From a virus (lineage: Duplodnaviria > Heunggongvirae > Uroviricota > Caudoviricetes): DNA of 41,694 nucleotides. Both the position numbers and the translations under genes were made by a program. Shown here in pieces: positions 8,779 to 9,150 of the stretch (its first letter is position 1; each line of letters starts with the position of its first letter). Under the pieces are notes generated by a model, which saw only the letters and a program-made list of their open reading frames with translations, made no database searches and was not told the origin of the DNA. The stretch lies in the IMG/VR virus record IMGVR_UViG_2529292985_000032. The stretch is one strand, 5' to 3'.

Positions 8779-8793
8779 TTACCTTTCAGGTAA
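8779..8793. promoter_or_regulatory. Operator-like palindrome TTACC-TTTCA-GGTAA between divergent tailspike and SOS-box gene
   Basis: Perfect inverted half-sites; same 15-mer as at 26734. Confidence 0.5.
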
Positions 8794-8830
8794 TTTACAA
8801 AACGTGCTGGATAGCAAACAAATTATTTGA

Positions 8831-8850
8831 TACTGTATATTCATACAGTT
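8831..8850 (+). promoter_or_regulatory. LexA (SOS) box TACTGTATATTCATACAGTT
   Basis: CTGT-N8-ACAG with AT-rich spacer, close to the enterobacterial LexA consensus; ends 19 nt before the ATG at 8870. Confidence 0.7.
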
Positions 8851-8869
8851 ATTGCATGGAGAAGATAAG

Positions 8870-9127
8870 ATGCAGCAGTATCACTATCCACTGGAAGACG
8901 GATTTACCGAAAGGGTTCACACGCCGGGAGGCGTCAGATCACTGGTGGAGGGATCGCACTTGATGAAATTACTCCGGGATCTCGATAAAGATGGATTCAA
9001 TGTCGATGGCCCACTTGCCGAACTGACTGCACTGATTAACTACGTAACCAGCTCACAGATGTCTATGCGGGATCTGCAAACACATCTCGACTATTGTGCC
9101 GAACAATTACGAAAACAAATCCGGTAA
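8870..9127 (+). CDS. Small SOS-regulated protein (85 aa), candidate antirepressor or other damage-induced effector
   Basis: ORF track 8852..9127 (TTG); better start is ATG 8870 with GGAG 8 nt upstream; antisense to the late operon; no family recognised by eye. Confidence 0.6.
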   Translation: MQQYHYPLEDGFTERVHTPGGVRSLVEGSHLMKLLRDLDKDGFNVDGPLAELTALINYVTSSQMSMRDLQTHLDYCAEQLRKQIR

Positions 9128-9150
9128 ATTTAAAGGCCGCGAAAGCGGCC
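9126..9150. terminator. Hairpin GGCCGC-GAAA-GCGGCC between convergent genes
   Basis: Perfect 6-bp stem with GAAA tetraloop; T/A-rich run only on the minus-strand side (TTTAAATTT). Confidence 0.4.

Follow-up and report, generated by a model that had tools for sequence, protein, structure and literature searches.

The 85-aa plus-strand gene lying between the tailspike and virion-protein genes of this prophage is very probably ant, predicted to encode an SOS-inducible antirepressor of an epsilon15/phiV10-like (Uetakevirus) prophage; we place the probability of this reading at about 0.9. The window, that is, the whole 41,694-nt stretch of DNA that was analyzed, matches epsilon15/phiV10-like phages of the genus Uetakevirus and represents an E. 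coli prophage. The features on which this reading draws are listed with their coordinates in Table 1.

Table 1. Features of the putative ant locus and of the repressor region, with positions in the window.
Feature	Position	Strand	Basis
Tailspike gene, 749 aa	6426..8675	-	phrog_1640 tail protein, E=4e-139; synteny with SPC32H, epsilon15, PAS61
Predicted Rep operator palindrome ATTACCTTTCAGGTAAT, ant-tailspike intergenic region	8778..8794	.	12 sites versus 1.3 expected; epsilon15 annotation
Predicted -35 hexamer TGGATA of ant promoter	8808..8813	+	invariant in six-phage alignment; prediction only
Predicted extended -10 element TGaTACTGT (TG-n-TACTGT)	8828..8836	+	invariant TG and TACTGT; prediction only
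LexA box TACTGTATATTCATACAGTT	8831..8850	.	unique near-consensus match; conserved position
Ribosome-binding site GGAGAAG	8858..8864	+	5 nt before ATG; read directly; invariant in six-phage alignment
ant, predicted 85-aa antirepressor gene; ortholog of SPC32H Ant, epsilon15 gp19, phiV10 gp24	8870..9127	+	5D50_E homology; phrog_450
GC-rich hairpin terminator, 48-aa gene / ant 3' end	9134..9151	-	T-run on minus strand only
48-aa putative integral membrane protein gene	9166..9312	-	phrog_7892, E=3e-25; last gene of virion-protein operon
Large virion-protein gene	9322..11133	-	neighbor, beyond the 48-aa gene
Predicted Rep operator, rep/cro-side intergenic region	35880..35896	.	ATTACC-N5-GGTAAT match
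rep, 194-aa prophage repressor, presumed Ant target	35951..36535	+	5D50_A homology; HTH hits
Two predicted Rep operators (36592-36608 and 36654-36670)	36592..36670	.	flank TTGACA promoter downstream of rep

The ant reading frame opens with an ATG at 8870 and closes with a stop codon at 9125-9127; the list of open reading frames also gives a TTG-extended form of 91 aa. A phmmer search aligned residues 2-83 of the product with chain E of PDB 5D50, labeled "Anti-repressor protein" (E=8.5e-46), and in a MAFFT alignment the product shared 82% identity with SPC32H Ant, 79% with epsilon15 gp19, and 95-96% with its counterparts in PAS61 and phiV10 (gp24, 96%). The product matches phrog_450, a family annotated as "unknown function" (E=2e-47), and, more weakly, the C-terminal part of phrog_1760, annotated as "anti-repressor"; the Pfam search gave nothing above threshold, with a sub-threshold hit to DUF724 alone, and the NCBIfam search matched no model. 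At the identical position, the GenBank record of SPC32H carries a gene labeled "ant: anti-repressor protein." The original prediction, which had recognized no family for this product, is corrected on that point by the membership in phrog_450 and the identity to the crystallized SPC32H protein; its further suggestion of a new class of antirepressor, or of another SOS effector, finds no support, as the product belongs to the recognized SPC32H Ant family. Because dN/dS against the Salmonella orthologs is 0.07-0.10, ant is, on this measure, a constrained protein-coding gene under strong purifying selection.

Homology to the same crystal structure extends to the presumed target of Ant. The window Rep aligns over residues 1-190 with chain A ("Repressor") of PDB 5D50 (E=4e-42), and its C-terminal half aligns with 5D4Z, a structure of the C-terminal domain (E=4e-20). 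Pfam places an HTH_3 domain at residues 106-147 and a weaker HTH-type match at residues 21-61, and returned no Peptidase_S24 match at E<=1, in agreement with the earlier description of a repressor with two HTH domains and no LexA-like autocleavage domain. Aligning over its full length with the non-cleavable Rep of SPC32H, the window Rep is by these comparisons not a self-cleaving repressor of the LexA/CI type. Its identity to SPC32H Rep is 42% overall and about 40% in the C-terminal domain, and it is 100% identical to the Rep proteins of phiV10, ZX5, PAS61, and others. Among phage records, 35 contain Ant and 36 contain a full-length Rep of the window type, and these are essentially the same set. 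The initial guess that a repressor that does not cleave itself would be paired with a LexA-repressed antirepressor matches the published SPC32H ortholog, with close homology of both partners.

Read directly, TACTGTATATTCATACAGTT at 8831-8850 is a near-consensus LexA (SOS) box, separated from the ATG at 8870 by 19 nt (8851-8869); every coordinate originally given for the box and the gene was verified. No other 20-mer in the 41.7-kb window comes within three mismatches of the LexA consensus TACTGTATATATATACAGTA, and 100 shuffled sequences yielded no match at that threshold. Scoring by weight matrix and heterology index had been proposed beforehand as a check; on a matrix trained on 20 E. coli LexA sites, with all scores approximate, the box reached 25.3 bits, within the top quarter of the training sites, as compared with 17.6 bits for the best of 30 shuffles and 16.3 bits for the next-best site in the window. 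Its approximate heterology index of about 1.9, derived from the same 20 sites, places it among the strongest sites. The predicted LexA box at 8831-8850 is, by these scores, beyond chance. One other instance of CTGT-N8-ACAG occurs in the window, at 22721; it has a GC-rich spacer and an approximate heterology index of about 20, and was rejected as a LexA site.

The likely promoter of ant is less conspicuous. A stringent sigma-70 consensus scan detected no ant promoter, and the hexamers proposed here, which are weak matches, were chosen because they are invariant columns in an alignment of the intergenic region from six phages (the window, PAS61, phiV10, SPC32H, SPC32N, and epsilon15). The TGGATA hexamer would be followed, after a 17-nt spacer, by a -10 hexamer sharing bases with the left half of the LexA box, and ant transcription may start near 8843, inside the box. 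The overlap of LexA box and ant promoter that marks genes of the SPC32H type is predicted here at the level of sequence. Across the six phages, the LexA box, the ribosome-binding site, the TGGATA hexamer, and TG-n-TACTGT stand in register, with a C to A change in the SPC32N box, and the window box (8831-8850) and the SPC32H box occupy identical alignment columns.

A wider survey of 89 homologous loci (80 IMG/VR contigs plus reference phages) showed that 87 of them, from phages of E. coli, Salmonella, Enterobacter, and Klebsiella, have a LexA box placed 18-20 nt upstream of the ATG. Among the loci with a box, the CTGT and ACAG half-sites are nearly invariant and the AT-rich spacer varies; departures within the half-sites comprise Klebsiella copies with ATGT on the left and one CTGC variant. 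Fixed half-sites, a variable spacer, and a retained position are together what a working LexA site would be expected to show. The two loci lacking a box at the expected position are SPC32N and one rearranged contig. Within the promoter stretch, SPC32N differs from SPC32H by a single base, a C to A change in the right-hand CAG of the box. According to Kim and Ryu in 2013, a CAG mutation of the SPC32N type reportedly renders Ant constitutive and leaves the phage unable to stay lysogenic.

The surroundings of ant are likewise conserved. An intergenic region of 194 bp lies between the gene and the divergently transcribed tailspike gene, and on the other side the gene and the terminal part of the virion-protein operon are convergent; the same arrangement—tailspike, ant on the opposite strand, then the end of the virion operon—is shared with SPC32H, SPC32N, epsilon15, and PAS61. 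In SPC32H, the order of tailspike, ant (opposite strand), small membrane protein, and virion protein is that of the window, and the 48-aa gene has a counterpart at the same place in both SPC32H and phiV10, labeled "putative integral membrane protein." The gene had initially been described as embedded antisense in the late operon: it does lie on the opposite strand between tailspike and virion genes, but a single enclosing late transcript is contradicted by the hairpin terminator at 9134-9151, the epsilon15 counterpart of which is annotated as a rho-independent terminator. Farther along the window, a 1331-bp insertion at 11107-12437, flanked by a 5-bp target duplication, contains IS3-family transposase ORFs and has the size of IS2. 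Comparison with PAS61 indicates that it splits a gp17-like virion gene. Because an insertion of IS2 size interrupts a virion gene, the window prophage may lack the ability to form infectious particles.

A LexA-Ant-Rep switch is already known for Uetakevirus, from genetics in 2013 and structure in 2016. Kim and Ryu (J Virol, 2013) and Kim et al. (PNAS, 2016) are said to have demonstrated LexA control, Ant-Rep binding, and disassembly of Rep in SPC32H. Both partners in the window are orthologous to those of SPC32H: Ant at 82% identity and within one residue in length (SPC32H Ant has 86 aa; 5D50 chains E-H), and Rep over its full length, with an N-terminal DNA-binding domain, a C-terminal HTH-like oligomerization domain, and no autocleavage domain. 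Gene order and strands, a LexA box 19 nt before the ATG, an ATTACC-N5-GGTAAT operator upstream, and the genus are also held in common. The two differ, however, in that the window belongs to an E. coli host lineage (phiV10-type) with a Rep only 42% identical, in the spacer of the LexA box (ATATTCAT in the window as compared with ATGTTTAT in SPC32H), and in that the prophage carrying the window copy has a virion gene interrupted by an insertion of IS2 size. At the level of sequence, the window shows all the features that define the SPC32H Ant/Rep system, namely both homologies, synteny, the LexA box, and a predicted non-cleavable two-domain repressor.

By analogy, in a lysogen host LexA would occupy the box at 8831-8850 and, because this box overlaps the predicted -10 element and start, would keep ant silent; tetrameric Rep would sit on ATTACC-N5-GGTAAT operators and hold the lytic genes off. 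Upon DNA damage, activated RecA would provoke self-cleavage of LexA, and ant would be transcribed. Tetrameric Ant would then bind two Rep dimers, contacting the C-terminal domains of Rep before its N-terminal DNA-binding domains, and would split the Rep tetramer and take it off the DNA, with lytic promoters derepressed without cleavage of Rep. One account of the 2016 structural work describes Rep binding DNA as a tetramer that is broken when a tetrameric Ant binds two Rep dimers (PMC9638917), and a review counts the Ant reported by Kim and Ryu in 2013 as an antirepressor under LexA control (PMC7380047). For the E. coli pair, we infer that LexA would bind 8831-8850 and that this Ant would bind this Rep. 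Because the window Rep is 42% identical to the crystallized SPC32H Rep, conservation of the Ant-Rep interface in the E. coli pair is an assumption. Phage ZX5, the Rep of which is the window Rep (100% identity), reaches 10^9 PFU after mitomycin C (PMC9782041), and a DNA-damaging microcin induces prophages of the phiV10 species 21- and 47-fold (bioRxiv 10.64898/2026.05.26.727859). These responses to DNA damage lend independent, indirect support to the switch in the E. coli lineage.

A second kind of antirepressor is encoded beside ant in several related phages. In ZX5 ORF4, Tyrion gp20, and phiV10 gp23 (phrog_1760), the last ~75 residues are homologous to full-length Ant at 38-42% identity, and Tyrion gp20 matches PDB 5D50_E (E=6e-14); overexpression of ZX5 ORF4 shifted the phage towards lysis (PMC9782041). 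These proteins differ from Ant in their length of about 230 aa, in their N-terminal Bro-N domain, and in their position in a separate cassette downstream of ant. A Pfam scan found no Bro-N domain (PF02498) in the 85-aa product, and a Bro-N/ANT-type antirepressor was ruled out for it on this basis; the Bro-N cassette downstream of ant is absent from the window. In phiV10 gp23, the Ant-like domain is truncated, with its first ~30 residues alone retained.

Family scans against Pfam and PHROG gave no match of the product to the Tum or GfoA/GfhA families, and Kim and Ryu in 2013 reportedly described SPC32H Ant as structurally distinct from antirepressors of the Tum and Gifsy types. The parallel with Gifsy GfoA/GfhA and with Tum of 186 and Fels-2 lies in a LexA-repressed small protein that inactivates a non-cleavable repressor, as described in the literature (PMC7380047; PMC3121763), whereas the phages concerned are of the Sipho- or Myoviridae type. 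Ant encoded in the immI region of P22 resembles the window gene in that it belongs to a temperate phage with a short tail and is encoded next to the tailspike gene; however, it has about 300 aa and is controlled by the phage proteins Mnt and Arc instead of LexA (PMC7380047). SOS induction of P22 does not need Ant, the C2 repressor of P22 being cleavable (PMC7380047).

Upstream of the ant promoter lies a palindrome that recurs elsewhere in the prophage. ATTACC-N5-GGTAAT occurs 12 times in the window with up to two mismatches, as compared with 1.3 expected occurrences, and the palindrome at 8778-8794 belongs to a set of about ten predicted phage-repressor operators there. The remaining sites are located in the rep/cro intergenic region, around the TTGACA promoter that closely follows rep, and in front of blocks of late genes; the pair within 36592-36670 corresponds to "repressor" sites at 32554-32632 in epsilon15. 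Such palindromes are already known as annotated repressor sites in epsilon15: its GenBank record labels the homologous positions "protein_bind: repressor, lysogeny," including a site between gp19 and tailspike beside a predicted IHF site. An operator stands about 92 nt before the ant ATG in 88 of the 89 loci surveyed. The original prediction had assigned a recurring palindrome at 8779-8793, the inner 15 nt of the full element, to the promoter region of the 85-aa gene; its recurrence is borne out, but the operator may act on the divergent tailspike promoter instead of on ant, or on both. Visual inspection of the sequence near the operator found weak hexamers only for a tailspike promoter.

Dual control of ant, by LexA at the -10 element and start and by Rep at the upstream operator, would let Rep feed back on its own antagonist. 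This arrangement seems unlikely to us, despite a conserved operator centered about 57 bp upstream of the predicted ant start, the repressor and IHF sites that the epsilon15 GenBank record places there, and a similar palindrome before the second antirepressor cassette of ZX5. On the minus strand, the same operator fills the spacing between TTGTAA and TACTGT, a placement compatible with the repression of a promoter for the tailspike gene (a weak match, seen by eye), and the other operators of the genome are located at lytic and late promoters. Regulation without LexA is exceedingly improbable: for the LexA-like sequence to be fortuitous or vestigial, and ant to be controlled otherwise, for example by Rep alone through 8778-8794, the Rep operator 14 nt upstream of the predicted -35 element and kept in 88 of 89 loci would have to suffice, against shuffled sequences that gave no comparable match, a box kept in position in 87 of 89 loci with nearly fixed half-sites and a free spacer, the natural CAG point mutation that separates SPC32N from SPC32H, and the response to DNA damage of E. 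coli phages with the same Rep. It is also very improbable that the product is no antirepressor and acts instead as another SOS effector, such as a toxin, a cell-division inhibitor, or a RecA modulator like DinI. A small protein under LexA control, with no Pfam or NCBIfam model and with database copies mostly named "hypothetical protein," would fit such a role; yet this one shares 82% identity with a protein crystallized together with a phage repressor, co-occurs strictly with the window-type Rep, and corresponds to the C-terminus of Bro-N antirepressors, one of which pushed ZX5 towards lysis when overexpressed.

A further alternative accepts the antirepressor reading and concerns what the switch accomplishes. 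The switch could be intact within a remnant, in which case SOS-induced Ant would lead only to abortive lysis through derepression of a defective prophage, or would work in trans on a second resident Uetakevirus, with no phage of its own produced. We regard this as somewhat unlikely. The 1331-bp insertion at 11107-12437, with its 5-bp target duplication, splits the gp17-like gene, and antirepressors that act in trans have been documented in Gifsy prophages (PMC3121763, as cited in PMC7380047); against this, the prophage retains apparently intact rep, ant, integrase, and lysis genes along with its operators, the insertion may be recent, and the main mechanism would not be contradicted, its outcome alone being altered. 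Between the E. coli and Salmonella lineages, Ant is 82% identical and Rep 42%. More speculatively, and in our view distinctly unlikely, Ant may be a broadly cross-reactive, modular Rep-disassembly domain that could induce heteroimmune Uetakevirus prophages in trans, with Rep feedback on ant as a possible addition. If this were true, one LexA-released Ant, even from an IS-crippled prophage, could induce heteroimmune Uetakevirus prophages.

With the SOS-inducible antirepressor as the preferred reading, the remaining value lies in the annotation of ant in E. coli genomes. O157 and gut strains of E. coli commonly carry prophages of the phiV10 type, and identification of ant would explain the response of these prophages to DNA-damaging antibiotics and bacteriocins. 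The 2022 study of ZX5 treats the neighboring Bro-N antirepressor only and mentions neither ant, LexA, nor SPC32H (PMC9782041). In public protein collections, the name "Anti-repressor protein" is given to the ant product by just a few UniRef entries. The ant region is present in approximately 531 of 5426 complete E. coli genomes (about 10%), and all copies among those listed are annotated as "hypothetical protein."

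Judged from sequence identity, the antirepressor Ant (85 aa; window 8870-9127, plus strand) is much better conserved than its presumed target, the 194-aa prophage repressor Rep (35951-36535): identity to the orthologue in the Salmonella phage SPC32H is 82% for Ant but only 42% for Rep (~55% in the N-terminal domain, ~40% in the C-terminal domain). This better conservation of Ant raises the question of cross-induction among heteroimmune relatives. The Bro-N antirepressors of other Uetakeviruses, whose genes lie directly downstream of ant, also end in a domain resembling Ant, with 38-42% identity across ~75 aa; this Bro-N cassette is absent from the window. 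The ZX5 study tested the Bro-N antirepressor (ORF4) alone and does not mention the small Ant (PMC9782041).

Good Rep operators (ATTACC-N5-GGTAAT; about 10 across the window) precede several gene blocks, beyond the immunity region as well as within it, and mirror the sites labelled 'repressor' in the GenBank entry for epsilon15. The operators at 36592 and 36654 flank a TTGACA promoter at window 36628. In ZX5, ant is separated from the ash/Bro-N antirepressor cassette by a stretch with a further Rep-operator-like palindrome, ATTTACCTTTGCGGTAAAT (L094:2086-2106), which suggests that the second antirepressor of ZX5 is controlled by Rep and not by LexA.

Coordinates of operators, Bro-N antirepressor genes and short ORFs (L089, L094 and L004, local coordinates in the Tyrion, ZX5 and phiV10 loci; PDB 5D50, SPC32H Ant-Rep complex)
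Feature	Coordinates	Strand	Remark
Rep operators, 17 nt	window 2987, 8778, 26733, 29859, 29877, 33487, 33549, 35880, 36592, 36654		
Tyrion gp20, Bro-N antirepressor	L089:1773-2477		PDB 5D50_E match, E=6e-14
ZX5 ORF4, Bro-N antirepressor	L094:2374-3069		Ant-like C-terminal domain
phiV10 gp23, Bro-N antirepressor	L004:2266-2850		Ant-like domain: first ~30 residues only
Adjacent short ORF 1	window 5204-5659	+	
Adjacent short ORF 2	window 5717-6136	+	

A hairpin at window 9134-9151 separates ant from the minus-strand 48-aa membrane-protein gene that ends the virion-protein operon. Its T-run is on the minus strand only, which makes it a proper terminator for that operon, whereas ant has just a bare hairpin at its 3' end. 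With the operon terminated here, the divergent tailspike gene would have to be transcribed from a promoter of its own, lying between it and ant.

Compared with phage PAS61, the gene for a gp17-like 824-aa virion protein is cut into 236-aa and 603-aa ORFs by a 1331-bp insertion (window 11107-12437). The insertion has the size of IS2, carries rve/HTH_Tnp_1 transposase ORFs and shows a target duplication of 5 bp. Particle production by this prophage is probably defective; the Rep/Ant/LexA switch looks intact.

No nucleotide match to PAS61 was found for window 2960-8173, whereas the remaining prophage is 95-98% identical to it. The block, which comprises the receptor-binding part of the tailspike and the O-antigen modification genes, is typical host-range module swapping. 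At its C-terminus the tailspike is similar to GDSL esterase-type tailspikes from Klebsiella relatives. The two adjacent short ORFs may represent a disrupted O-antigen acetyltransferase gene, the serotype-conversion gene present in phiV10 and PAS61; in ORF 2, the match to the Acyl_transf_3 domain is confined to its middle and C-terminal part (positions 188-292 of the 326 in the profile).
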